A DNA stretch of 20,000 bases from an uncultured virus (IMG/VR IMGVR_UViG_3300020582_000004). Lineage: Duplodnaviria > Heunggongvirae > Uroviricota > Caudoviricetes. Both the position numbers and the translations under genes were made by a program. Under the pieces are notes generated by a model. The model was not told the DNA's origin and searched no databases. It was given only the letters and a program-made list of their open reading frames with translations. Shown here piece by piece: positions 1,764-15,056 of the stretch. The DNA is taken from IMG/VR virus record IMGVR_UViG_3300020582_000004; one strand, written 5' to 3'. How positions within the stretch are numbered: position 1 is the first letter of the stretch; every line of letters begins with the position of its first letter.

Positions 1764-1882
1764 GTCGCCACCTCCGCACTCGGATTCTCTTTTTCCTTCT
1801 CCCATACGCAAAGACCGATGTGACCCGCAGGCTTGACGCACTGCTGAAACTCGGCGCTCGTCCAACCGCAGCGCTCAGTCAA
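1760..1882 (-). CDS. 40-aa Cys/His micro-protein (MTERCGWTSAEFQQCVKPAGHIGLC...)
   Basis: Not in the ORF track; TTG start overlaps the helicase stop, its TGA overlaps the next GTG, and it fills the gap exactly. Confidence 0.5.
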   Translation of the reverse strand: MTERCGWTSAEFQQCVKPAGHIGLCVWEKEKENPSAEVAT

Positions 1883-3693
1883 TGTTTCGTTTTTTCCTCG
1901 CCGAGGTCCATGGCATCGAGGAGTTTCTCTTTGCGTTCGAGGATGATCGCAACGCGTTGATCGATAGCATGAGCTGCATTCAAGATCGTAACGATGACAC
2001 CGCGCGTTTGTCCGATTCGAACTGCGCGGTCCTCTGCTTGAAGATTATTTGCTGGTACGAAGTCGCGATCCAGGAACATGACGTTCGCCGACTTGGTCAA
2101 CGTGACGCCGACGCCCATCGAGCCGATCGTTCCCGCGATACCACGAAGCTCACCACGCTGAAACTTTTCGACAAGCGCCGTCCGCTCGACATCGGACGTG
2201 CTTCCCGTGATGCACGCCCAGCCCTTTCGAGCCCCGAGCGAAATGATCGGATCGCGGTGATAGGAGAAAGCGATAACGGGTTCCTCGACTTGCTCGCATT
2301 CTTTGATCAAGTCGATGAGCGTCGAGAGCTTGAGCAGCGCAAGCTCTTTTCGGATCATCGAGAGCGCGCCGCCCGCGGCGCACTCTTCAAGCACCTTGTC
2401 ATCGGACCAATCTTGGAACTGGAGGAGCAGATTCTCGGTGAGCGTAACGAGCTTCGAGAGCGCACGTGACTCGACTTTGACCTCCACGATGCGACGCGTT
2501 TTGACCGGTAAGTCAGGAAGCACGTCGACGCGCATGCGACGAAGCATGACTGTTCCGAGACACTCACGCGCTTCGGGAGAAGCGTAGCCAGGACGCCATT
2601 CATAGCCACGAGGTTGGCCTTTGAACTCGAGCTTGCGACCGCCGAACATTTCGACGAAATCTTTCCAGCCTCCGAACGTGTCCCAAGCTCCGTCATCGAA
2701 TTGACCGCCTTGTCCTGGAAAGAGCTGACAGAGAGACCAAAGCTCAGGAGGATGATTCAGGAGCGGAGTACCTGTCAAAACCCATACAGAAGAACCGCGG
2801 CCCACGACTCCCGTACTGCATGCCGCTGCGATGGTGCGCACCGCGATCGTGCGTTGAGAATCTTTGTTTTTGCAGTAATGCCCCTCGTCGACCACGAGCT
2901 GCACGGAATGCTTCGCCGGAGGACCGATCCACACCCACTCGGGCCACGCGTCTTCGCGTTGTTGAAAACGCCTCATGGCTATCGTCATATCCGTTCTTGT
3001 GCATCGACCTCCGCGCTCAGGATCGCACTTGTCCGTCCAAGGCTGCTCCTGCTTCCGAGCAAAGAGAATTTCTTCGTCCTCGAGAGGTACGACAGAAAGA
3101 CGCCCGCAGTAAGGACAGCGCGTGCGCTTCTCGAGCCACTCATGCGGAAGCTGCGAATACGGAACGATGTTCAGCTCGCCGGGCTCGGGGAAAAGCGGAT
3201 ACGGGAAACCCCAGAGTCGCAAAGTGAAGTCCGGACGCCCACGTTGTGCTTCTTTTAACCAACTACCAACAACTACCGATGGAACTATAAAGAGCGCGCC
3301 TTTCCTAATGTCTAGTGCTGCTAATGAGGTAAAACTTTTTCCGGTCCCCATCTGATCAGCTAATAATGCACGCCTTCTAGAGCGTAAAAACTCAGCACCA
3401 ATTCGTTGATAGGGATAAAGCCTATTATCAGTGCACTTCCAGGCTGACGACCTTAGCGTCTCTGGCACACCTGATTTTGAACGAAGCTCGATGCCGTGCT
3501 TTTGCAAGGCCCCACATGCGCGCAGCGCAGCTTCGAGCGGCACCACGTAGTCGACGTTCGAGCCTTTCTTTTGACGAAGGCCGTACGGACCTAGGACTCG
3601 GCGAAAGAGCGCGGCGCCGCCAGCACTTGGCGAGAAGAGAGCAAGGCGCTCCCCATCAGCCCCCGTACCGAGTGCGACGCTCACCGCGGGCAT
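1879..3693 (-). CDS. SNF2-family (SF2) DNA helicase/ATPase
   Basis: Q motif LYPYQ, Walker A LLADQMGTGKS, motif II VVDEGH, motif III LTGTPLLN, motif VI QAEDRAVRIGQ. Confidence 0.95.
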   Translation of the reverse strand: MPAVSVALGTGADGERLALFSPSAGGAALFRRVLGPYGLRQKKGSNVDYVVPLEAALRACGALQKHGIELRSKSGVPETLRSSAWKCTDNRLYPYQRIGAEFLRSRRRALLADQMGTGKSFTSLAALDIRKGALFIVPSVVVGSWLKEAQRGRPDFTLRLWGFPYPLFPEPGELNIVPYSQLPHEWLEKRTRCPYCGRLSVVPLEDEEILFARKQEQPWTDKCDPERGGRCTRTDMTIAMRRFQQREDAWPEWVWIGPPAKHSVQLVVDEGHYCKNKDSQRTIAVRTIAAACSTGVVGRGSSVWVLTGTPLLNHPPELWSLCQLFPGQGGQFDDGAWDTFGGWKDFVEMFGGRKLEFKGQPRGYEWRPGYASPEARECLGTVMLRRMRVDVLPDLPVKTRRIVEVKVESRALSKLVTLTENLLLQFQDWSDDKVLEECAAGGALSMIRKELALLKLSTLIDLIKECEQVEEPVIAFSYHRDPIISLGARKGWACITGSTSDVERTALVEKFQRGELRGIAGTIGSMGVGVTLTKSANVMFLDRDFVPANNLQAEDRAVRIGQTRGVIVTILNAAHAIDQRVAIILERKEKLLDAMDLGEEKTKH

Positions 3694-3696
3694 GAC

Positions 3697-4101
3697 TCAC
3701 AGAGCCTTGTTCCCGTGACGAAAAGGTCGAGTTTTGTTGTAAGCCATCTTCTCGAGCACGATGCGCTCGAGATCGATTTCATGCTCTCCGCAGAAGTCGA
3801 AGACACGAATGACGATGTCCGCGATCTCACTCGCAACACCTACGGGCTTATGAGCGCACTCGTTCGTCCCATCGTCTGGATAACACCTCGGAGAACCGTA
3901 ACCGCCGCAATCTCCCTTTGGGTGTCTGCATTCGTATCGCACTTCTGCGACTTTACTTCCTTCACGAAACGCTTCGTAGGCCTCGCCGACTTCAGTCGTG
4001 ATGAGCATAAGCGCGTCTCCGACGGTGCGCTTGACGTCGTGAAAGCCGTGAGCTTTTGCGTTTGCGTAAGCCTCATCGCGAAGCTCGTTGAGCGATCTCA
4101 T
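3697..4101 (-). CDS. MazG-like nucleotide pyrophosphohydrolase (134 aa from ATG 4101)
   Basis: LITTEVGEAYEA and SEIADIVIRVFD acidic motifs, KMAYNKTRPFRHG tail; AAGGAG RBS before ATG 4101. Confidence 0.85.
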   Translation of the reverse strand: MRSLNELRDEAYANAKAHGFHDVKRTVGDALMLITTEVGEAYEAFREGSKVAEVRYECRHPKGDCGGYGSPRCYPDDGTNECAHKPVGVASEIADIVIRVFDFCGEHEIDLERIVLEKMAYNKTRPFRHGNKAL

Positions 4102-4316
4102 TATCGCGTTCTCCTTCCGCGTCGCGATGTGCTCGGCGACGAGAGCCTCATGCCGCACGCTTCGCGAATTTGACGCGCATGATCGAGCGCGTTCGTCTTC
4201 GAGCCATAAGAGGTAAGAGGTAACTCGGTAAAGCCCCGCGCTCCGACATACACAATGTGATTGCCTTGAGGACCGCCTTTTCGAACCCATGCCGTCACTG
4301 CGAAGTAGCTGCTCAT
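4101..4316 (-). CDS. Hypothetical protein (71 aa)
   Basis: ATGA and TAATG overlaps with neighbours; the 3' end frame is uncertain. Confidence 0.55.
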   Translation of the reverse strand: MSSYFAVTAWVRKGGPQGNHIVYVGARGFTELPLTSYGSKTNALDHARQIREACGMRLSSPSTSRRGRRTR

Positions 4317-4567
4317 GGCTTTTTCTCCTCTCCATTATTCTCTCGAGCAAGCTCTTCCCTTGCACGCATCAACGTCGCCGTTGAAAAAAGAGTCGCGTCC
4401 TCACGAATCCCGGCTTTCAAGGTCTTCTTTGCCAGCACGATCTCACGCTCGATGTACGCCTGAAACTCTTCTGGAGTTGGATGCCAGCGAGCTTTCTCGT
4501 ACCAGTCTTCCTTGGTGTTACCTCGCGAAGGCGTCAACGACGTTGCCGAATCATCACGTCTCTCCAT
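4313..4567 (-). CDS. Hypothetical protein (84 aa, MERRDDS...)
   Basis: ATG at 4567 sits just after the upstream stop; a longer start would overlap the upstream gene. Confidence 0.6.
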   Translation of the reverse strand: MERRDDSATSLTPSRGNTKEDWYEKARWHPTPEEFQAYIEREIVLAKKTLKAGIREDATLFSTATLMRAREELARENNGEEKKP

Positions 4568-5218: not shown

Positions 5219-5421
5219 TTGGCACTTTCTCCTGCAGCTCTTCGAATTTGCCCAGCCAACGCATCAAGACATGCCGCGCAAAGCGGAAAGGGATCGCTAC
5301 GAGTGATGTGAAGGCACAAAACCATGCGCTCACATCCTACGCACTTGGTGTGCTCGTACCACTCGAATACGCGCGCAGTGGGCTTGATAGTCAGATCAAG
5401 ACTCATCACGTCACTCGTCAC
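5215..5421 (-). CDS. Small zinc-finger protein (68 aa)
   Basis: CVGC...LCAAC; GTG directly follows the upstream stop. Confidence 0.6.
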   Translation of the reverse strand: MTSDVMSLDLTIKPTARVFEWYEHTKCVGCERMVLCLHITRSDPFPLCAACLDALAGQIRRAAGESAK

Positions 5422-6459
5422 TCAGTGCAGAAGGCCGTGAATCTCGGCGTACCTACGGCGCTCGTGACGCGGAACGGTGTGCGGGATGTTTTTCTCCTGC
5501 ATCAAGGTCGTGATGTTCGCGGTCTCCCAGAACTTCTCACGCGTTGCCTCGCTCGCCTCGAGCCAGAGCTTTTGTGTGAGGAGCACATCGCCGATCGGTA
5601 CGCCGGAAGGCTGAATGCAGAACGAGCGAATGATGGAGCCTTTCTCATCGACCTGCTTCACGTTGCCATGAGAGCCGCGGTCGATGCGATAGCGCTCTTT
5701 CTTTCTGCCATCCGAAGAGGTGACCTCGATGTAGAAGCAATTCTTCTTTTCGAAGTCCTCGATCTGCTGCGGCGAGAGACAGAGACGCAAGAGGTCATCG
5801 GCACGCTTTTCGGCCATCTTTGCCGCGAGCGCTCGCTTCTCGGCTTCTTCGCGCGCGCGTTTTTCTTGCTCGAGAGCCGCGAGTAGCTCGGTGTCCGATA
5901 GCTTGCGACGCGAGTAGCGTTGAATGTTGGCCGCGTGATCGCCGGCTTCCTTGATACGCTCGTAACGATCAACCCATGCGTTCCAGGCGAAGTGATTGAT
6001 GGTGTTCGTGGAAGAGGTAATCGTATTGAACGGAAAATTGTTATACGTGACAGCGCTGGTAGACGTGTATTGAATGTTCCAAAGTGGCCACGTGTTGTTC
6101 ATGGTCGCCGCTCCAGTTCCGATCGTTTGCGTAATCGTATAATTCGCACAGGTGCCCGCCCATACCTCGATGATTGGCGGATACATCTCCTCGTACTTGC
6201 GACGCGCTTCGGCAATCTCCTCGTACTTGCGACGCGCTTCGGCAAGAGCTTGACGTTGCTGCAACTGTCGCTCTTCCAACTCAATACGAGCAGCAATGAC
6301 TTCACGCCGTCGCTGATCAGCGGCGAGTGAATTGATCGATACTGGCGGCGGAGGACCCGCGAGCGCGTTGATCGGCACAGGCGGAGTACCAGCATTGATC
6401 GGCACAGGCGGAGTTGCAGCTCGCAACTCCGCAGCCCCAACAACCTGTAGGCCTGGCAT
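5422..6459 (-). CDS. 345-aa protein: Pro-rich repeats, coiled coils, Thr/Asn-rich segment, globular C-terminal domain; partner of the GG-ending protein
   Basis: TGATG coupling at 6457-6461; C-terminal domain RADDLL..LSPQQ..RYRI..GNV..FCIQP..DVLLTQKLWLE..F..AN. Confidence 0.85.
   Translation of the reverse strand: MPGLQVVGAAELRAATPPVPINAGTPPVPINALAGPPPPVSINSLAADQRRREVIAARIELEERQLQQRQALAEARRKYEEIAEARRKYEEMYPPIIEVWAGTCANYTITQTIGTGAATMNNTWPLWNIQYTSTSAVTYNNFPFNTITSSTNTINHFAWNAWVDRYERIKEAGDHAANIQRYSRRKLSDTELLAALEQEKRAREEAEKRALAAKMAEKRADDLLRLCLSPQQIEDFEKKNCFYIEVTSSDGRKKERYRIDRGSHGNVKQVDEKGSIIRSFCIQPSGVPIGDVLLTQKLWLEASEATREKFWETANITTLMQEKNIPHTVPRHERRRYAEIHGLLH
6185..6245. repeat. Perfect 30-bp tandem duplication (AEARRKYEE x2)
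   Basis: atctcctcgtacttgcgacgcgcttcggca at 6185-6214 and 6215-6244. Confidence 0.95.
6368..6414. repeat. 27-bp-period repeat encoding TPPVPIN
   Basis: ttgatcggcacaggcggagt at 6368-6387 and 6395-6414; a degenerate third copy follows in the protein (PPPVSIN). Confidence 0.9.
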
Positions 6460-6734
6460 CAGCCGCCTGCTTGTGGCCGCGTAAAGATGATTCGCTCCGC
6501 GTTTGCGTCGAATTCCTTCATCTGCTCGCCTGGCTCGCCGTTCTTTCCAGTCACGCGAAACGCCGTGTAGCCTTTTGCGACCATGTCTTTAAAGGTACGA
6601 CGCGCATTTGCAACCTCGTCCTCGTTATCACGAGACCACATCACCTTCGTGTCGCCGGTCTCGTCCGTGATCGCCATCCAATGCTTGCCGTCGAACGGAG
6701 TCGTCATTGCCTCGGTCATGAGATCTGATGCCAT
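6459..6734 (-). CDS. Putative ubiquitin-like (beta-grasp) protein ending in Gly-Gly (91 aa)
   Basis: C-terminus ERIIFTRPQAGG*; the strand/helix pattern fits beta-beta-alpha-beta-beta-beta. The ORF is solid, the fold is inferred. Confidence 0.65.
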   Translation of the reverse strand: MASDLMTEAMTTPFDGKHWMAITDETGDTKVMWSRDNEDEVANARRTFKDMVAKGYTAFRVTGKNGEPGEQMKEFDANAERIIFTRPQAGG

Positions 6735-6758
6735 GGGATTCTCTCTTTCTTTTTCAAT

Positions 6759-6905
6759 TTCGGCATTCGAAAGAGGCAGAAGAAGCGAGTACTAATCGCT
6801 TCACGATCTAATCATCAACGCGTTAGTACCCGATAGCACCGGGTTATAAAACCCGACTCGGACGCCATGATGGATCATTTCCTTCTGCCTCTTGCGAATG
6901 TCGAA
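6759..6905. ncRNA. Candidate structured RNA (long closing stem, internal hairpins, kissing/pseudoknot pair)
   Basis: 6759-6782 vs 6882-6905 inverted repeat (22/24 Watson-Crick); hairpins 6782-6802 and 6840-6855; loop GTACTAA (6789-6795) is complementary to TTAGTAC (6823-6829). Confidence 0.6.
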
Positions 6906-6941
6906 GAAAGACGCACGGAGTCTACCAAGACTCCGTGCATC
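6903..6941 (-). terminator. Probable intrinsic terminator after the SSB-like gene
   Basis: Perfect 11-bp stem gcacggagtct/agactccgtgc (6913-6938), extendable to 14 bp with a G-U pair on the minus strand, followed by UUUCUUC. Confidence 0.6.
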
Positions 6942-6958
6942 CTTGCTGCACAATCCGC

Positions 6959-7531
6959 TCAGTCCGCCTCGACCTGGAACGTCGGATCGGCAGCTGTCTC
7001 GGCCGCCTCGTCGCCCACGCCCTGAACCTCGCTGATCGCGATGATACGATGCGGCGCCGCCGAAACCTTGAGAGGCTTGACGTCGTACATCTTGCGACCC
7101 TTGCCGATGTCACGCTGCGGAAGACGCGTGAACGAGACCTTGTGACCAGCCTTCGCCGGCCACATCCCGACGAAACCCTTCCACTCGGGCACCGCGACCA
7201 TGCAGCCCTTCGGAGCCTTGTGGAGTTTGTTATCGCCCTTGCTGCCTGGCATCCTGTCCGAGCCGCCGTTCTTGACGTGCTCGGTGGTCTCGAGGACCTC
7301 GAAGACGAGCGAATTCGACTGAAGCTTCTCCGAACGCGCCTTGTCGATGAAGTTCACGAGAATGCCCGTGAACGAAGCGGAGATGTCCTTGGGAGGAGAC
7401 CACCATCCGTCCACGCTTCCGCCGAATTGACCCTGCCAATCCTGCATGTCGTCATCCGCGCCGTTGGCGGGAGCCGAGGCACCCGTCGTTCCGGCCGGAG
7501 CTGCTTGCATCTTTTCATTCGCTTTTGCCAT
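6959..7531 (-). CDS. Probable single-stranded DNA-binding protein (OB-fold-like)
   Basis: Aromatic/beta-rich core, acidic C-terminal tail ending DPTFQVEAD, strongly biased codons, GGAG RBS, replication context. Confidence 0.55.
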   Translation of the reverse strand: MAKANEKMQAAPAGTTGASAPANGADDDMQDWQGQFGGSVDGWWSPPKDISASFTGILVNFIDKARSEKLQSNSLVFEVLETTEHVKNGGSDRMPGSKGDNKLHKAPKGCMVAVPEWKGFVGMWPAKAGHKVSFTRLPQRDIGKGRKMYDVKPLKVSAAPHRIIAISEVQGVGDEAAETAADPTFQVEAD

Positions 7532-7556
7532 TTGGAATCTCCATCAATCACTAGAA

Positions 7557-7583
7557 CACAACTCACAACTCACAACTCACAAC
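7557..7583. repeat. Heptamer tandem repeat (CACAACT) x~4 in the SSB-like leader
   Basis: cacaact at 7557, 7564, 7571 and cacaac at 7578. Confidence 0.9.
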
Positions 7584-7588
7584 ACCGA

Positions 7589-7610
7589 GATCGGGACCGA
7601 AGTCCCAATC
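7589..7610 (-). promoter_or_regulatory. cUUCGg tetraloop hairpin in the SSB-like leader
   Basis: Minus strand GAUUGGGAC-UUCG-GUCCCGAUC, 9-bp stem with one U-G pair. Confidence 0.7.
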
Positions 7611-8121
7611 ACGACTCTTTTGATTTCTCTAAATAATTCGCAGCCGCACGAAGCCAGTCTGGCCGATCAGCAAAACGGCCCAAACCATTATTGCACGAAG
7701 AGCACAACAAGCCTCGTAAAGCATTGGTAAACAAGCCTCGTAAAGCATTGGTAATATGATCATGATCAACTGCAAGCTCGCGCACCTTATCGCGGCACTT
7801 GCTAGTTTCCTTTCGAAAACAAATCGCACATACACCATGCTGAGCCTTCAGCATCTCCTCATATTCAGAGACAGAGATGTTGAATTTTCGACGCAATGCA
7901 GAACGCCGATCAGCCTGAAGCGCTTGAGCCCTATTGAGTGAACGCCACTTCTGTGAGTACTTTACTGAACGGCCGTCGGCCTTCGCTGCTGCTGCAATAG
8001 CAGCCATCTTTTCGGGATGACGACGTGAGTAATCACGACATCTCGCTCTGCATTTTTCACAAGTCTTCAGCTTGACGCCTAATGCCTTTTGCACTCGGCA
8101 CCTTCTACAGCCGCCAGCCAT
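7609..8121 (-). CDS. Endonuclease VII-family (His-Me finger) nuclease, probably a free-standing homing endonuclease
   Basis: QHGVCAIC...LAVDHDH...RGLLCSSCNNGLGRF; visibly more AT-rich than its neighbours. Confidence 0.9.
   Translation of the reverse strand: MAGGCRRCRVQKALGVKLKTCEKCRARCRDYSRRHPEKMAAIAAAAKADGRSVKYSQKWRSLNRAQALQADRRSALRRKFNISVSEYEEMLKAQHGVCAICFRKETSKCRDKVRELAVDHDHITNALRGLFTNALRGLLCSSCNNGLGRFADRPDWLRAAANYLEKSKES
7706..7754. repeat. Perfect 24-bp tandem duplication inside the nuclease active-site region
   Basis: aacaagcctcgtaaagcattggta at 7706-7729 and 7730-7753 (TNALRGLF/TNALRGLL). Confidence 0.95.
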
Positions 8122-8732
8122 TACTCAGCAGACGTCGTGGTTGCCTCGGTCGCGGCTGCCGTGACGCCGTTCGTGTGAGCGGCCTTCTTCGAAGCGTGAT
8201 GCCTCGACTTGCTGCGCGCCTTGCCACCCTTCGGAGCTGTCTTCTTTGCCGCTTTCTTCTTGGTCTTCTTCGCGCCGCCTTTGCCACTCGCGCTCTTCTT
8301 GCTGCCAGCGAAGTACATCGTCGCGCGCTTGTGACCGCGCTTGGTGATCAAATGCTTTTTGAGAGCCTCTGCAATCAAGCGCGGAAGCTCTTTTCGCTCA
8401 ATGCCGAGTTCCTCGCGAATGCCCTCAGCGTTGATGCCGTTCTTGCCACGGCCCCTAACTACACGAGCAAGAATCAAAGAGCCCGAAGCAATATCCTCTT
8501 CTGAACGACGAACGCGTTTGCCTCCACCGCTCGCCTTGCGACCCGGCTTGCGACCGGGCTTACGACCCGGCTTTTTTCCATTGCTAGCCTTTTCCGACAA
8601 AGCGATCAGCTCGCCAATCGAAAGACTGCCCAAAGACGCTAGCGCTTCCTGCCTGCCGTCCTCTTTGCCCTCTTCGTATGCGTGATCCGCAACTTCAACA
8701 GCCAGCGACCTGTACTCTTTCTCTTCAATCAT
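8121..8732 (-). CDS. Histone-like DNA-binding protein (KPGR repeats, winged helix, Lys/Ala-rich tail)
   Basis: KPGRKPGRKPGRK (12-bp repeats 8535-8570); RRSEEDI...AEGIREELGIERKELPR...KRGHKRATMY; KKTKKKAAKK tail. Confidence 0.8.
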   Translation of the reverse strand: MIEEKEYRSLAVEVADHAYEEGKEDGRQEALASLGSLSIGELIALSEKASNGKKPGRKPGRKPGRKASGGGKRVRRSEEDIASGSLILARVVRGRGKNGINAEGIREELGIERKELPRLIAEALKKHLITKRGHKRATMYFAGSKKSASGKGGAKKTKKKAAKKTAPKGGKARSKSRHHASKKAAHTNGVTAAATEATTTSAE

Positions 8733-8751: not shown

Positions 8752-9582
8752 TCAGTCGTAATTCTTGATCAAAAGCTCGCGGACCCCAACGCGGGATGAC
8801 GCTTTCGCTCCGATCATGTGCTTCACGGTTACCGGGACAATCGTGAACTCCTTGTATAGCGCACGAATCGTACTGGAGTCACCCTGAGAGCACAAAAACT
8901 TTGCGCCACGCTTATGCACACTCGTGAGCGATTGCGCAAGTCGCTCGTGGTCTTTCTCACCGAATTTGCCTGCCGTGTAAGAGGTGAAGTTCGCGGACTC
9001 GGACCTCGGCAGGTAAGGAGGATCAGCGTAAACGAAGTCACTCTTCTTTACTTCCGCAAGTCGATACATAAAGTCTTCTGACCAAAGATCGACGCCTTTC
9101 AATGCCGCACGCCATGTGTTCATGACGTCGGGCTCCACGATCGTCGGATTCACGTACGAGCCTATGGGCACATTGAACTTTCCCTTTCCGTTCACGCGCC
9201 ACAAGCCATTGAAGCACGTCTTATTGAGATAACAAAAACGAATTGCACGAGCCAGCGACGTATCTGGCTCCTCATCTCTAATGCGATAATATTCTTTCTT
9301 CGAATGCTTGATCGCTTGAAGCCCTCGAATCAGCTCTGAAGTCTTGTTCTTTACAACCGAGTAAGCGTTCATCAACTCGGCATTCACATCATTGAGGACA
9401 GCCCACGACGTACCAAACTCGCGAACTCTAGCCTCACCCTCGGACTCATAGAGAGCCAAGAACACGGCTCCGCCACCTACGAATGGCTCGTGGTAGCAAC
9501 CCGTAAACGCGGGCACGTGCTGCATGATGGTGGGAACAAGCTTCGTCTTCCCACCTGCGGCTTTAAAACACGGCTTAGACAA
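8752..9582 (-). CDS. dam: Dam-family (D12 class) N6-adenine DNA methyltransferase
   Basis: AGGK, EPFVGGGAVF, LNDVN, YLNKTCFNGLWRVN..GKFNVPIG, FVYADPPY; TTG start after AAGGGG. Confidence 0.93.
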   Translation of the reverse strand: MSKPCFKAAGGKTKLVPTIMQHVPAFTGCYHEPFVGGGAVFLALYESEGEARVREFGTSWAVLNDVNAELMNAYSVVKNKTSELIRGLQAIKHSKKEYYRIRDEEPDTSLARAIRFCYLNKTCFNGLWRVNGKGKFNVPIGSYVNPTIVEPDVMNTWRAALKGVDLWSEDFMYRLAEVKKSDFVYADPPYLPRSESANFTSYTAGKFGEKDHERLAQSLTSVHKRGAKFLCSQGDSSTIRALYKEFTIVPVTVKHMIGAKASSRVGVRELLIKNYD

Positions 9583-12001: not shown

Positions 12002-12109
12002 TCACGGCTGCACCGCTGCGCGAGCAAGATACGCTCCCGCCATCAAGAACACCAGACAAGGAAGAACGAACGACGCAATCAACTTCACTCCATAGATGAA
12101 CCGCTTCAT
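12002..12109 (-). CDS. 35-aa single-TM peptide coupled to ftsK (MKRFIYGVKLIASFVLPCLVFLMAGAYLARAAVQP)
   Basis: ATG overlaps the ftsK TGA (ATGA); hydrophobic core; below the ORF-track cut-off. Confidence 0.45.
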   Translation of the reverse strand: MKRFIYGVKLIASFVLPCLVFLMAGAYLARAAVQP

Positions 12110-14073
12110 GACCACACCTTCACGCGCGCATCCTTGCGCGCCACCTTCACGGGTTTCACACCATCATCTCCAACATCATTCGAACCATTCGAAAGAATGC
12201 TCTCGTCGTACGCAGGAACTCCCTGCGTGCACAAGTAACCAGTCACCGACTCAATCTCGCCCTCGGTGATCATCGGGCACTGCACGCGAACCGCGGCATC
12301 GGCACCATTGAGTTTCACGAGCGAATCACCGCGACCCGTGAGCTGCTCAGCGCCTTGCTCATCGAGCACCACGCGCGAGTCGACTTTCTGCGACACGCGG
12401 AATGCGATGCGCGTCGGGAAGTTTGCTTTGATCGTGCCCGTGATGACATCAACCGAAGGACGCTGCGTCGCAAGGATCAAGTGCATGCCTGCGGCACGCG
12501 CCTTCTGAGCAAGCCGAGCGACGAGCGCTTCAACGGCTTTTCCTTGCGACGCAATGAGGTCCGCGAACTCGTCCACGACGATCACGATGTAAGGCAGCTT
12601 CCCCGAAGAGGTCTTCGCACGAGCGTTGAACGTCGCGATGTTCTTTGCACCCGCTGACGCAAGGAGCTGGTAACGACGCTCCATCTCGCTCACGGCCCAC
12701 GTGAGTGCGTCGACGGCTTGCTTCATGTCAACAATCACTGGAGTAACCATATGAGGAATACGAGCATACGGCTGCAGTTCGACGACCTTCGGGTCGATCA
12801 TCATGAGCTTCAACTCGTCAGGCCTGCGGCAGTAAAGAAGTGAGGTGAGCATCACGTTGAGGCCCACGGACTTGCCCGCGCCCGTCGCACCTGCCGCGAT
12901 GACGTGCGGCATGTCCGCGAGATCCGCGAAGACGCCCTCGCCTCGCACATCACGACCGAGCACGACGGGAAGCGCCATCTTCGACGACGCGACTCGGAAG
13001 CCGTCGCTCTCGATCAGCTCTCGAAGCGCCACGCAAACGCGCTTCTCGTTTGCGACCTCGAAGCCCACGCGACCGAGGCGCGACGGAACAACACGCACCT
13101 TGCGACCGAACGCGAGCGACAAGTCGTCCGCGAGGCCCATGACCTTCGAGAGCTTCGTTCCTGGAGCAACGCGCGTCTCGAACGTCGTCACGATCGGGCC
13201 GGTTATGATTTCCTCGACCTTAGCGTCCACGTCGTACGCTCCGAGCGTCGAGGCCAAGAGCGCGCCTTCTTCCTGGAGTTGCTTCTCGCTCACGCTCGCA
13301 CCGGCCGACTCGCCGCGCACGAGGAGCTTCGACGACGGAAGCGCGAACGACCCCATCGACGCCGACGAGCCGCGCAAGGGCTTCACGAGCGACAGGTGAC
13401 GCGGACGCGGAGCCTTCTCCGTCACAGGCGCATCCGAGTCCGAGTCATCCGAGTCCGAGTCCGAATCAACCGAGTCCGAATCCAAATCATCCGAGTCCGC
13501 GTCATCCGAGTCCGAGTCCGAGCCCTCATCGCCCTCGTCCTCATCCGAGACCTCGTTCTCATCCTCGCCACGCACAACCGTCATCGCCTTCACGTGAGCG
13601 CGAACGGGAATCGCACGAGCGCGCAACGCACTCAAACCACGACGTGTGAAGCGCTCGGCAAGAACGAGGAGAGCGAGCGCCATGAGCACGACGAACGCGC
13701 CAGGAACCGACAGAGCTGCTACGGCGCTATCGCCAAGGAACGCGCCGACTACGCCACCGCTCTCAGACGACGCGAGGGCCGCGAGTGCCGATGCCACCAG
13801 CACGAGCACCACGTCGCCGCCCACGCGAAACATCGTCAAGCCTCGCCGTCCCCGTGCGTCTCCCGCGCTACGGAACACCGTCACGCCGGCAAAGACGAAC
13901 ACAACTACGACGACCCACGACGCGAGCCCGAAGAGACCCGAGACCGCCTCGGACAAGCCCTCACCCGCGGGACCAAAGAGCCCGCACACGAGGGAGAGCG
14001 AGACGAAGCTCGCCACCATCCAAAGTCCAACCGCGAGCGTTACGCGACCTGCTTCGACCTTTCCGCGATTCAT
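12106..14073 (-). CDS. ftsK: FtsK/SpoIIIE DNA translocase with N-terminal TM domain, lacking the gamma domain
   Basis: About 4 TM helices; DLADMPHVIAAGATGAGKS Walker A, IDPKVVEL, IVVDEFADL Walker B, LAQKARAAGMHLILATQRPSVDVITG, DSRVVLDEQGAEQLTGRGD. Confidence 0.95.
   Translation of the reverse strand: MNRGKVEAGRVTLAVGLWMVASFVSLSLVCGLFGPAGEGLSEAVSGLFGLASWVVVVVFVFAGVTVFRSAGDARGRRGLTMFRVGGDVVLVLVASALAALASSESGGVVGAFLGDSAVAALSVPGAFVVLMALALLVLAERFTRRGLSALRARAIPVRAHVKAMTVVRGEDENEVSDEDEGDEGSDSDSDDADSDDLDSDSVDSDSDSDDSDSDAPVTEKAPRPRHLSLVKPLRGSSASMGSFALPSSKLLVRGESAGASVSEKQLQEEGALLASTLGAYDVDAKVEEIITGPIVTTFETRVAPGTKLSKVMGLADDLSLAFGRKVRVVPSRLGRVGFEVANEKRVCVALRELIESDGFRVASSKMALPVVLGRDVRGEGVFADLADMPHVIAAGATGAGKSVGLNVMLTSLLYCRRPDELKLMMIDPKVVELQPYARIPHMVTPVIVDMKQAVDALTWAVSEMERRYQLLASAGAKNIATFNARAKTSSGKLPYIVIVVDEFADLIASQGKAVEALVARLAQKARAAGMHLILATQRPSVDVITGTIKANFPTRIAFRVSQKVDSRVVLDEQGAEQLTGRGDSLVKLNGADAAVRVQCPMITEGEIESVTGYLCTQGVPAYDESILSNGSNDVGDDGVKPVKVARKDARVKVWS
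13431..13522. repeat. (TCCGAG)n-type degenerate repeat encoding the Asp/Ser linker of FtsK
   Basis: Many tccgag/tcatccgag units; SDSDSDDADSDDLDSDSVDSDSDSDDSDSD. Confidence 0.85.
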
Positions 14074-14303
14074 GACTCCTCACGCTCCTGTGCTGCAATG
14101 TCGAGTTCATCAGCCTCACTTCGTTGAACACGACAGTAAGAGTCGCGCGCCAACCGAGACTCGATCTGTCGAATAAACTCGAACGCGTCCTGACGAAGGG
14201 CGAACAGGTATTCTTCCGTGCACTCGCCAGAAAGCGAGCCCATCGTCCCATGCATCACCAATTGCGCCCTCGCGTCGTCCCTCGTCTTGTGTTGATTGTC
14301 CAC
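14070..14303 (-). CDS. Hypothetical protein (77 aa, GTG start supplied by repeat copy 1)
   Basis: AAAGAGG RBS; ATGA overlap with ftsK. Confidence 0.7.
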   Translation of the reverse strand: MDNQHKTRDDARAQLVMHGTMGSLSGECTEEYLFALRQDAFEFIRQIESRLARDSYCRVQRSEADELDIAAQEREES

Positions 14304-14431
14304 GGCGATCCTCTTTCGTTGCGCCTTGCGGCGTCTGTCAACTTGTCTACTTAGCTTTATAGCAACCCTTGGGCCAACTGGAAACCCCTTGTTTCCGTGC
14401 TCTCGGACCCCGATGTGAACACCGGGTTACT
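14300..14431 (-). repeat. 132-bp direct repeat, copy 1 (promoter + leader + RBS + GTG)
   Basis: Matches 14914-15045 at about 122/132 positions by manual alignment, offset 614. Confidence 0.95.
14361..14377 (-). promoter_or_regulatory. Sigma54-type -24/-12 promoter
   Basis: TTGGCCC-AAGGG-TTGCT, exact GG-N10-GC spacing. Confidence 0.7.
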
Positions 14432-14636
14432 CCGTCTCCTCATCGGCATCCTCGAGCTGAAGACGTGCGTCACTAAGCGATGCCTCAACAGCCATGCCAA
14501 TCACAGTCTCCACCTCGCTACGGGTCGCAAGACGTAAGCACGACCCACGGCCATCGCGACTATAGGCAATCGCTGTAAGATCTTCATCACTCAGCACAAA
14601 CCGAATGACGAACACACGCCGCTTCGGCGCCTTCAC
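14427..14636 (-). CDS. Hypothetical protein (69 aa, GTG start)
   Basis: GTGA overlap at 14633-14636 with GAGGGG RBS; the stop lies in the repeat end. Confidence 0.6.
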   Translation of the reverse strand: MKAPKRRVFVIRFVLSDEDLTAIAYSRDGRGSCLRLATRSEVETVIGMAVEASLSDARLQLEDADEETE

Positions 14637-14917
14637 GTTCCCCTCGTCATGCGGCAGCATTGATACGGAAGCTCCAGCTCAGGAAAGACAGAAAGAAGCA
14701 GGTCTCGCCCTGCATCGGTCACAAACAACCGTTGCGGGTAACAGAGTCTACCGCCCGCATTACGAGGCGGCATCGGGCCACGACGAACGAGACCCGCGCG
14801 AAGAAGCCCAACGTATCGACCCATGCGATAGCGCTGAACCGGCAAGCCCTCTTCAGTCATGGCCACACGACCCAATCGGGCCAGCTGGTCATTACTGATC
14901 TTACGAACCTTCACCAC
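14633..14917 (-). CDS. Small winged-helix-like protein (94 aa)
   Basis: LLRAGLVRR...VTDAGRDLL wing motif; start codon supplied by repeat copy 2. Confidence 0.65.
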   Translation of the reverse strand: MVKVRKISNDQLARLGRVAMTEEGLPVQRYRMGRYVGLLRAGLVRRGPMPPRNAGGRLCYPQRLFVTDAGRDLLLSVFPELELPYQCCRMTRGT

Positions 14918-15045
14918 GTCGAGCCTCTTTCGTAGAGCCTTGCGGCGTCTGTCAACTTGTCTACTTAGCTTTATAGCAACCCTCGGGCCAACGGGAAACC
15001 CCTTGTTTCCGTCCTCTCGAGACCCGATGTGAACACCGGGTTACT
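14914..15045 (-). repeat. 132-bp direct repeat, copy 2
   Basis: Matches 14300-14431. Confidence 0.95.
14975..14991 (-). promoter_or_regulatory. Sigma54-type -24/-12 promoter
   Basis: TTGGCCC-GAGGG-TTGCT; differs from copy 1 only in the spacer. Confidence 0.7.
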
Positions 15046-15056
15046 ATGCCTCCGTC

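Follow-up and report, generated by a model that had tools for sequence, protein, structure and literature searches.

The DNA analysed here, referred to throughout as the window, is a phage-like stretch of 20,000 nt. The sequencing runs that carry it are labelled soil metagenome, with no RNA run among the 10 listed, and two further contigs, L018 and L019, are near-identical to it. All plausible genes from about position 70 to about 14250 lie on the minus strand, and family searches place among them an SNF2-type helicase (1879-3693), a MazG-like pyrophosphatase (3697-4365), an endonuclease VII (7609-8121), a D12-class (Dam-type) adenine methylase (8752-9582) and an FtsK/SpoIIIE-like translocase (12106-14073). 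Within this run of genes, a gap of 224 nt separates up190, which encodes a 190-aa protein, from a gene for a 91-aa protein with a C-terminal Gly-Gly (hereafter the Gly-Gly gene). This gap holds the element that concerns us, 147 nt at 6759-6905 in which 24-nt inverted arms surround a structured 99-nt core. The features of the locus are these, with the minus strand being the sense strand of all neighbouring genes:

5422-6459, minus strand: 345-aa partner protein, whose C-terminal domain is found downstream of the Gly-Gly gene in many loci (tblastn)
6459-6734, minus strand: 91-aa Gly-Gly protein with a predicted ubiquitin-like fold (43 homologs; AF2 model)
6735-6758, minus strand: purine-rich leader with a ribosome-binding site (sense AUUGAAAAAGAAAGAGAGAAUCCC, then AUG), unpaired in a 246-nt sense fold
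6759-6782, no strand assigned: outer arm of the inverted repeat, 3' in the sense RNA (repeat search; pair probabilities)
6783-6881, no strand assigned: 99-nt structured core (z about -3 on each strand; homolog not found)
6882-6905, no strand assigned: outer arm of the inverted repeat, 5' in the sense RNA (repeat search; pair probabilities 0.94-1.0 on both strands)
6907-6944, minus strand: terminator-like hairpin after up190 (core stem 6913-6923/6928-6938, 4-nt loop)
6959-7531, minus strand: up190, a 190-aa protein of no assigned family (open reading frame; no Pfam or PHROG match)

The Gly-Gly protein and its partner recur as a pair on large contigs that reach about 260 kb, and neither protein matches a family in Pfam or PHROG. 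All 43 homologs of the Gly-Gly protein keep the C-terminal GG, and in the partner the residues C281, P288, D291 and Q296 do not vary across 42 distinct sequences. The AlphaFold model (AF2) of the Gly-Gly protein is of moderate confidence (pLDDT 72.6), and its Foldseek matches are weak (E at least 0.019), many of them to ubiquitin-like, UBX or Ras-binding folds. A single-sequence query of IMG/VR with this protein returned no relatives. In a literature search on ubiquitin-like diglycine proteins of phages, the matches listed all concerned eukaryotes or archaea, and none of them was relevant.

On the other side of the gap, up190 has 32 homologs and no relative in IMG/VR, whether sought by single sequence or by profile; it stands beside the Gly-Gly gene only in the window's phage (L019) and in one other locus, L033. 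The terminator-like hairpin that follows up190 is succeeded on the sense strand by an interrupted U-tract, GUCUUUCUU, and its stretch 6913-6938 is absent from the terminators listed by a consensus scan. The initial annotation had placed the element between a terminator and the start of the gene that it called Ubl, and this position was borne out, with the terminator-like hairpin on one side and the start of the Gly-Gly gene on the other. No promoter-like (sigma-70-like) site was found on either strand between 6300 and 7700.

Several repeats occur elsewhere in the window. In-frame tandem duplications lie in the partner gene and the endonuclease VII gene, at 6185-6244 (30 nt, 100% identical), 6365-6418 (27 nt, 89%) and 7706-7753 (24 nt, 100%). 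A 182-nt direct repeat (14258-14439 and 14872-15053, 82% identity) sits where gene orientation switches from minus to plus, and this region, near 14.3-15.0 kb, may be a control or origin region. Finally, repeats with a 21-nt period (plus strand CATCCGAGTCCGAGTC) occupy 13410-13563 within the FtsK-like gene, which therefore encodes a repetitive acidic/serine-rich linker in the protein.

Sequence and predicted folding of the element

The arms of the element, 6759-6782 and 6882-6905, were recovered by an inverted-repeat search of the window as 92% complementary. Read on the plus strand, they pair through 22 Watson-Crick pairs, one wobble (G6763-T6901) and one mismatch (A6770/G6894), so that the 24-bp closing stem of the initial annotation, with its one G-U and one mismatch, is present in the sequence together with every other feature listed there. 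The element is poorer in GC than its surroundings (0.47 versus about 0.6). The plus strand reads ...TTCAAT up to the element and GAAAGA... beyond it, and no direct repeat in this flanking sequence marks a target-site duplication. On the sense strand the closing stem runs into AAUUGAAAAAG, and on the plus strand into GAAGAAAGAC; no U-tract follows it in either direction, and the element thus does not have the form of an intrinsic terminator, a GC-rich hairpin with a directly adjoining U-tract.

Three other ways of accounting for the sequence were discarded. The nearby Dam-type methylase raised the idea that GATC sites cluster here, which was rejected: the window holds 120 sites against 129.5 expected, two of them in the element. 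A 25-codon open reading frame on the sense strand (6878-6801), preceded by GAGG, has no homologs and was taken as chance. A degenerate tRNA was likewise rejected, with ARAGORN reporting 0 tRNA or tmRNA genes in the window and no similarity between the element and the tRNAs that precede the Gly-Gly gene in the related loci L098, L039 and L032.

Predicted folding of the element is far stronger than that of shuffled sequence, as the multi-stem RNA claimed for it would require. The plus-strand RNA reaches -65.0 kcal/mol against -34.1 +/- 3.9 kcal/mol for the shuffles (z -7.84), the minus-strand RNA reaches -66.6 kcal/mol (z -7.10) and the single-stranded DNA reaches -40.3 kcal/mol (z -8.66), and in each case 0 of 200 shuffles folded as well. 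The structure is thus real and highly non-random on either strand. Even without the closing stem, the 99-nt core still folds better than shuffled sequence: its z is -3.0 for the minus strand, where 0 of 200 shuffles do as well, and -2.9 for the plus strand, where 2 of 200 do. In a scan of the 20-kb window by 150-nt segments at a step of 15, regressed on GC, the element was the top fold outlier on both strands. A longer sense fold, covering the 246 nt of 6715-6960, has a predicted energy of -102 kcal/mol (z -7.0) and runs in order from the up190 stop codon through a 17-bp hairpin (core 6913-6938, with the interrupted U-tract), the element and the leader to the AUG. In this fold the 24-nt leader between the element and the start codon is unpaired.

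The two strands are predicted to fold differently inside the closing stem. The inner features are as follows:

6782-6802, plus strand: hairpin GAAGCGA-GTACTAA-TCGCTTC (probability 0.73-0.999 on the plus strand, about 0.03 on the minus)
6787-6831, minus strand: alternative 13-bp helix with one bulge (probability about 0.96 on the minus strand, 0.0 on the plus)
6840-6855, both strands: tip hairpin CGGGTT-ATAA-AACCCG (probability 0.76-0.996)

The minimum-free-energy fold of the plus strand contains the hairpin at 6782-6802, a nested arm at 6805-6876 and the tip hairpin, and this three-way junction, the one described in the initial annotation, is dominant on the plus strand. On the minus strand, the sense strand of all neighbouring genes, roughly 6787-6799 pair with 6819-6831 in the 13-bp helix, which takes in the complementary segments proposed to kiss (6789-6795 and 6823-6829) and extends them by G-U pairs. 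A contact between hairpin loop and bulge is consequently possible in the plus-strand fold only, and the sense strand is predicted to form an ordinary helix in its place. The sense strand also has two folds lying less than 1 kcal/mol apart (-65.7 and -66.6 kcal/mol). The complementarity itself is unusual: by a mononucleotide model, and in a test chosen post hoc, the exact complement of the 7-nt loop would occur within the remaining 79 nt with a chance of about 0.004. TTAGTAC occurs twice in the window, both times within the element and on opposite strands, where 0.34 occurrences are expected and 10 of 200 shuffles reach two.

Two wobbles had been noted as favouring the plus strand. These wobbles, G6763-T6901 and T6809-G6872, do suit the plus strand better, but the total energies do not favour it (-65.0 kcal/mol for plus versus -66.6 kcal/mol for minus), and because the two indications diverge, sequence and energies give no call on the strand of the element.

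Absence of the element from related phages

Searches for relatives of the element returned only the phage itself. We assembled 98 related loci with relatives of the Gly-Gly protein, comprising 17 viral, 80 metagenomic and 1 genomic, and a blastn search of these with the intergenic region matched L018 and L019 only, which are copies of the same phage with 100% identity. When a covariance model (R1) was applied to the window together with the remaining 96 loci (368,921 bases), the window was its sole match, and no second copy of the element was found within the 20-kb window. Searches of phage records and plasmid records by blastn gave no match to the element. In IMG/VR, an inverted-repeat pattern scan gave a single match, in an unrelated coding region of L099 (chance), and two core-motif scans gave nothing. 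The metagenome-assembled genome (MAG) that carries L098 yielded short chance matches only (best E 0.06), a DNA search of 401 sampled genomes from the class of that MAG gave just a 20-nt flank match, and the covariance model matched nothing in 151 sampled genomes from its family.

Known RNA families gave a similar result. Rfam returned 0 matches over the whole window at gathering thresholds, and at E<=10 the segment 6600-7050 matched just two miRNA models, both far below threshold, namely MIR161 with 20.4 bits (threshold 90) and mir-4716 with 13.5 (threshold 76), in agreement with the earlier remark that no known riboswitch or ribozyme consensus could be recognised. The ribozyme, riboswitch and self-multimerising functions then suggested find no support here. 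A reading of the element as a conserved non-coding RNA fails as well, as the element has no homolog in the loci searched in which its pairing could covary. Nor does the element appear to be part of the Ubl module, as had been thought possible, given that both the blastn search of 98 loci and the covariance model on 96 matched only the same phage. Because no homolog was found in the sequences searched, we are confident that the element is lineage-specific and lies outside the conserved Gly-Gly/Cys-partner module.

Within its own phage, the element is invariant in the contigs examined. Across 5400-8200, contigs from 4 soil DNA runs have identical sequence, with no variants and no alternative junctions. 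The contigs of one low-depth run, X7, stop at 6767 and resume at 6776, within one arm, and we read this as a low-coverage break.

Other phages with the Gly-Gly gene carry different sequence at this position. In L020, L021, L022/L023, L025 and L028, whose Gly-Gly proteins are 76-80% identical to that of the window, a small gene of about 60 aa lies upstream instead and ends 30-45 nt before the Gly-Gly start. The purine-rich leader motif AAGAAAGAGAG is common to the window, L020, L022, L025, L028 and L033. That the element might be a remnant of the small gene of L020, L021, L022, L025 and L028 was considered and rejected, as tblastn against the window gave nothing (best E 0.063, elsewhere).

The most informative relative is L033, the sole one with up190 directly upstream (up190 identity 68%). 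Here too a terminator hairpin stands in the corresponding position; its stem differs in sequence yet still pairs, and its U-tract is better. The purine-rich leader is also kept, but a 34-nt spacer takes the place of the element. Homology between this spacer and the element was also rejected: a gap-friendly alignment gives scattered blocks of 4-8 nt, and 55% of 2000 shuffles score as high locally. Because L033 keeps a re-paired hairpin without the element, the terminator next to the element appears, on this comparison, to behave like a conserved functional hairpin, and the element to behave like sequence that one lineage alone has gained, by insertion or by replacement.

Two other loci, L098 and L039, have a tRNA array just upstream of the Gly-Gly gene. 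ARAGORN identifies in each, after four tRNA-Leu genes, a tRNA with the anticodon TTA (L098:2339-2411 and L039:2329-2403), which would read the UAA stop codon; this tRNA may serve stop-codon suppression or recoding in these phages. The same tRNA-Leu array is present in L032.

Considered more broadly, the region upstream of Gly-Gly genes shows a weak pattern of structure. Among 77 distinct 150-nt windows taken from this position, that of the element is the most extreme (z -6.5), and 8 of the 76 others have z <= -3.4, compared with 0 of 75 coding control windows. The strongly folding upstream windows that we inspected are unrelated hairpins, terminators or tRNAs. For example, in L046 a 13-bp closing stem encloses two hairpins (approximately 2380-2470), and L047 has a 14-bp perfect stem with no U-tract (approximately 2365-2415); both stems stand 35-60 nt before the Gly-Gly start, and both are unrelated in sequence to the element. 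The excess of upstream structure is what is expected if the Gly-Gly gene often starts a transcription unit, and shows no shared RNA element.

Possible roles of the element

We propose that the element is a lineage-specific insertion into the sense transcript whose 24-bp stem acts as an intercistronic processing or stability signal of the RNase III type, a reading to which we give a probability of about 0.4. Because the neighbouring genes are all on the minus strand and promoter-like sites were found on neither strand, the element would be transcribed only within the sense RNA, by read-through of the weak terminator. This RNA would then fold into the 24-bp closing stem holding two hairpins, with the leader and the start codon, 24 nt downstream, left single-stranded. 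At the mRNA level the stem could serve as a substrate for host RNase III or as a barrier to exonucleases, and would in either case separate the fates of the up190 and Gly-Gly messages. One report (PMC5371410) gives 22 nt as the minimum target size of RNase III and names targets in phages lambda, T7 and T3. The RNase III reading is favoured because the 24-bp stem exceeds this minimum and because such phage sites are known; pair probabilities of 0.94-1.0 on the sense strand are consistent with a stem of about 22 bp or more, and cleavage itself is only proposed.

Comparison with known sites is instructive in both directions. The RNase III sites of T7, T3 and lambda and the closing stems of rRNA resemble the element in placing a stem of >22 bp in a non-coding spacer between genes of the same strand. 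As at those sites, the upstream message would end up with a stable hairpin, and the ribosome-binding site downstream would be free. By contrast, it encloses a branched core of 99 nt and not a simple bubble hairpin, its cleavage is only predicted, it has no sequence relation to any known site, and the recognition rules of the host's RNase III may differ.

Several observations count against a processing stem. First, both wobbles fit the plus strand better than the sense strand. Second, the up190 hairpin is absent from the consensus terminator scan, and if it were nevertheless an efficient terminator, transcription from upstream might never reach the element. Third, the core's own structure (z about -3) would be superfluous for a simple RNase III stem. 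Finally, without homologs there is no sign of selection on the structure. We hold the RNase III mechanism with much less confidence than the lineage specificity of the element, which may equally have little or no function. In either case, it is a single example of a large intergenic stem in a phage transcription unit and not a new RNA class.

Nearly as likely as the processing-stem reading, and itself a real if tentative possibility, is a neutral or selfish palindromic insertion, either MITE-like or the product of a replication template switch, whose stability would be a by-product of its inverted-repeat origin. The element is a singleton, absent from the sole syntenic relative (L033), bounded by 24-nt terminal inverted repeats and lower in GC than its flanks, and the three in-frame tandem duplications nearby suggest that slippage-type events are frequent here. 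Its 147-nt size, terminal repeats, intergenic site and presence or absence between close relatives are all features of MITE-like elements. Unlike these, it is single-copy in all searched sequence (the 20-kb window, the 96 other loci, the 401 genomes searched as DNA and the 151 searched with the covariance model), and neither a target-site duplication nor a related transposase was seen. Moreover, the core has a nested structure of its own, and the identical sequence in contigs from several soil runs indicates that the element is stably kept.

A further alternative, which we consider unlikely, is that the element works as DNA, forming a single-strand hairpin or cruciform that serves as a priming or single-strand initiation signal or as a site of replication, recombination or packaging. 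The DNA fold has a z of -8.66, the structure is equally good on both strands, the element is AT-richer than its flanks, and neighbouring genes encode proteins of DNA transactions, namely the SNF2 helicase, endonuclease VII, Dam-type methylase and FtsK-like translocase. However, iterons or repeated boxes were not found in the sequence, GATC is not enriched, and a 99-nt spacer makes cruciform extrusion unlikely. Related phages with the same functions encoded nearby also lack the element, and the strand switch with its 182-nt repeats near 14.3-15.0 kb is the likelier control or origin region.

More ambitious proposals can also be framed, and we regard them as improbable. The element could be a functional, lineage-specific RNA device that sets expression of the Gly-Gly/Cys-partner operon, through a bistable fold of the sense strand or through a small RNA released by cuts in the 24-bp stem, or it could be a tiny DNA inversion switch for that operon; more generally, large stems might have been placed repeatedly and independently upstream of the Gly-Gly gene in this phage group.

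Still more doubtful is an independent non-coding RNA, which would be either a plus-strand antisense RNA with a loop-bulge pseudoknot or an RNA of about 100-147 nt cut from the sense transcript, possibly bistable or catalytic. Such an RNA would account for the wobbles that favour the plus strand, for a 7-nt complementarity improbable by chance (about 0.004 in the post hoc test) and for the two near iso-energetic sense folds, and in L098 and L039 the corresponding place before the Gly-Gly gene is indeed taken by RNA genes, in the form of tRNAs. But the element bears no likeness to the tRNAs of L098, L039 or L032, and ARAGORN finds nothing in the window; promoter-like sites were found on neither strand of 6300-7700, no U-tract follows either end of the closing stem, and with no homologs found there is no covariation. 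In its plus-strand fold the element recalls the three-way-junction ribozymes of the hammerhead type, which also combine a closing stem with two arms and a possible contact between loop and bulge. It nonetheless matches no Rfam family, ribozymes included, even at E<=10, and its junction strands of 0, 2-3 and 5-6 nt are too short for the hammerhead conserved core, which needs longer ones.

Least probable is an inverton, in which the 24-bp inverted repeats would let a recombinase invert the 99-bp core and so switch the Gly-Gly operon on or off. The geometry fits, since as in invertible promoter switches the repeats bracket a short segment, here with a gene directly downstream and a terminator upstream. 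However, no recombinase or invertase family appeared among the 36 ORFs scanned in the window, which covers 20 kb of a longer genome, and the core has no promoter-like site in either direction. The contigs of 4 runs contain no strand-changing joints or inverted form (a weak test, as contigs drop rare variants), and one of them spans 6216-8200 in the reference orientation. Known switches of this kind are typically about 150-300 bp, longer than 99 bp, and the core's own structure is left unexplained.

The element serves at present mainly as a caution, in that a very stable and elaborate fold beside an interesting gene is not in itself evidence of a conserved RNA class. The Gly-Gly/Cys-partner module, which combines an invariant C-terminal GG with an invariant cysteine and is widespread in large phage contigs, is a more interesting object than the element that precedes it here. 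If the stem does work as a processing or stability signal, one soil phage would use it to uncouple expression of the undescribed, ubiquitin-like Gly-Gly/Cys-partner pair from the gene upstream, and L033, which lacks the element, would provide a natural on/off comparison.
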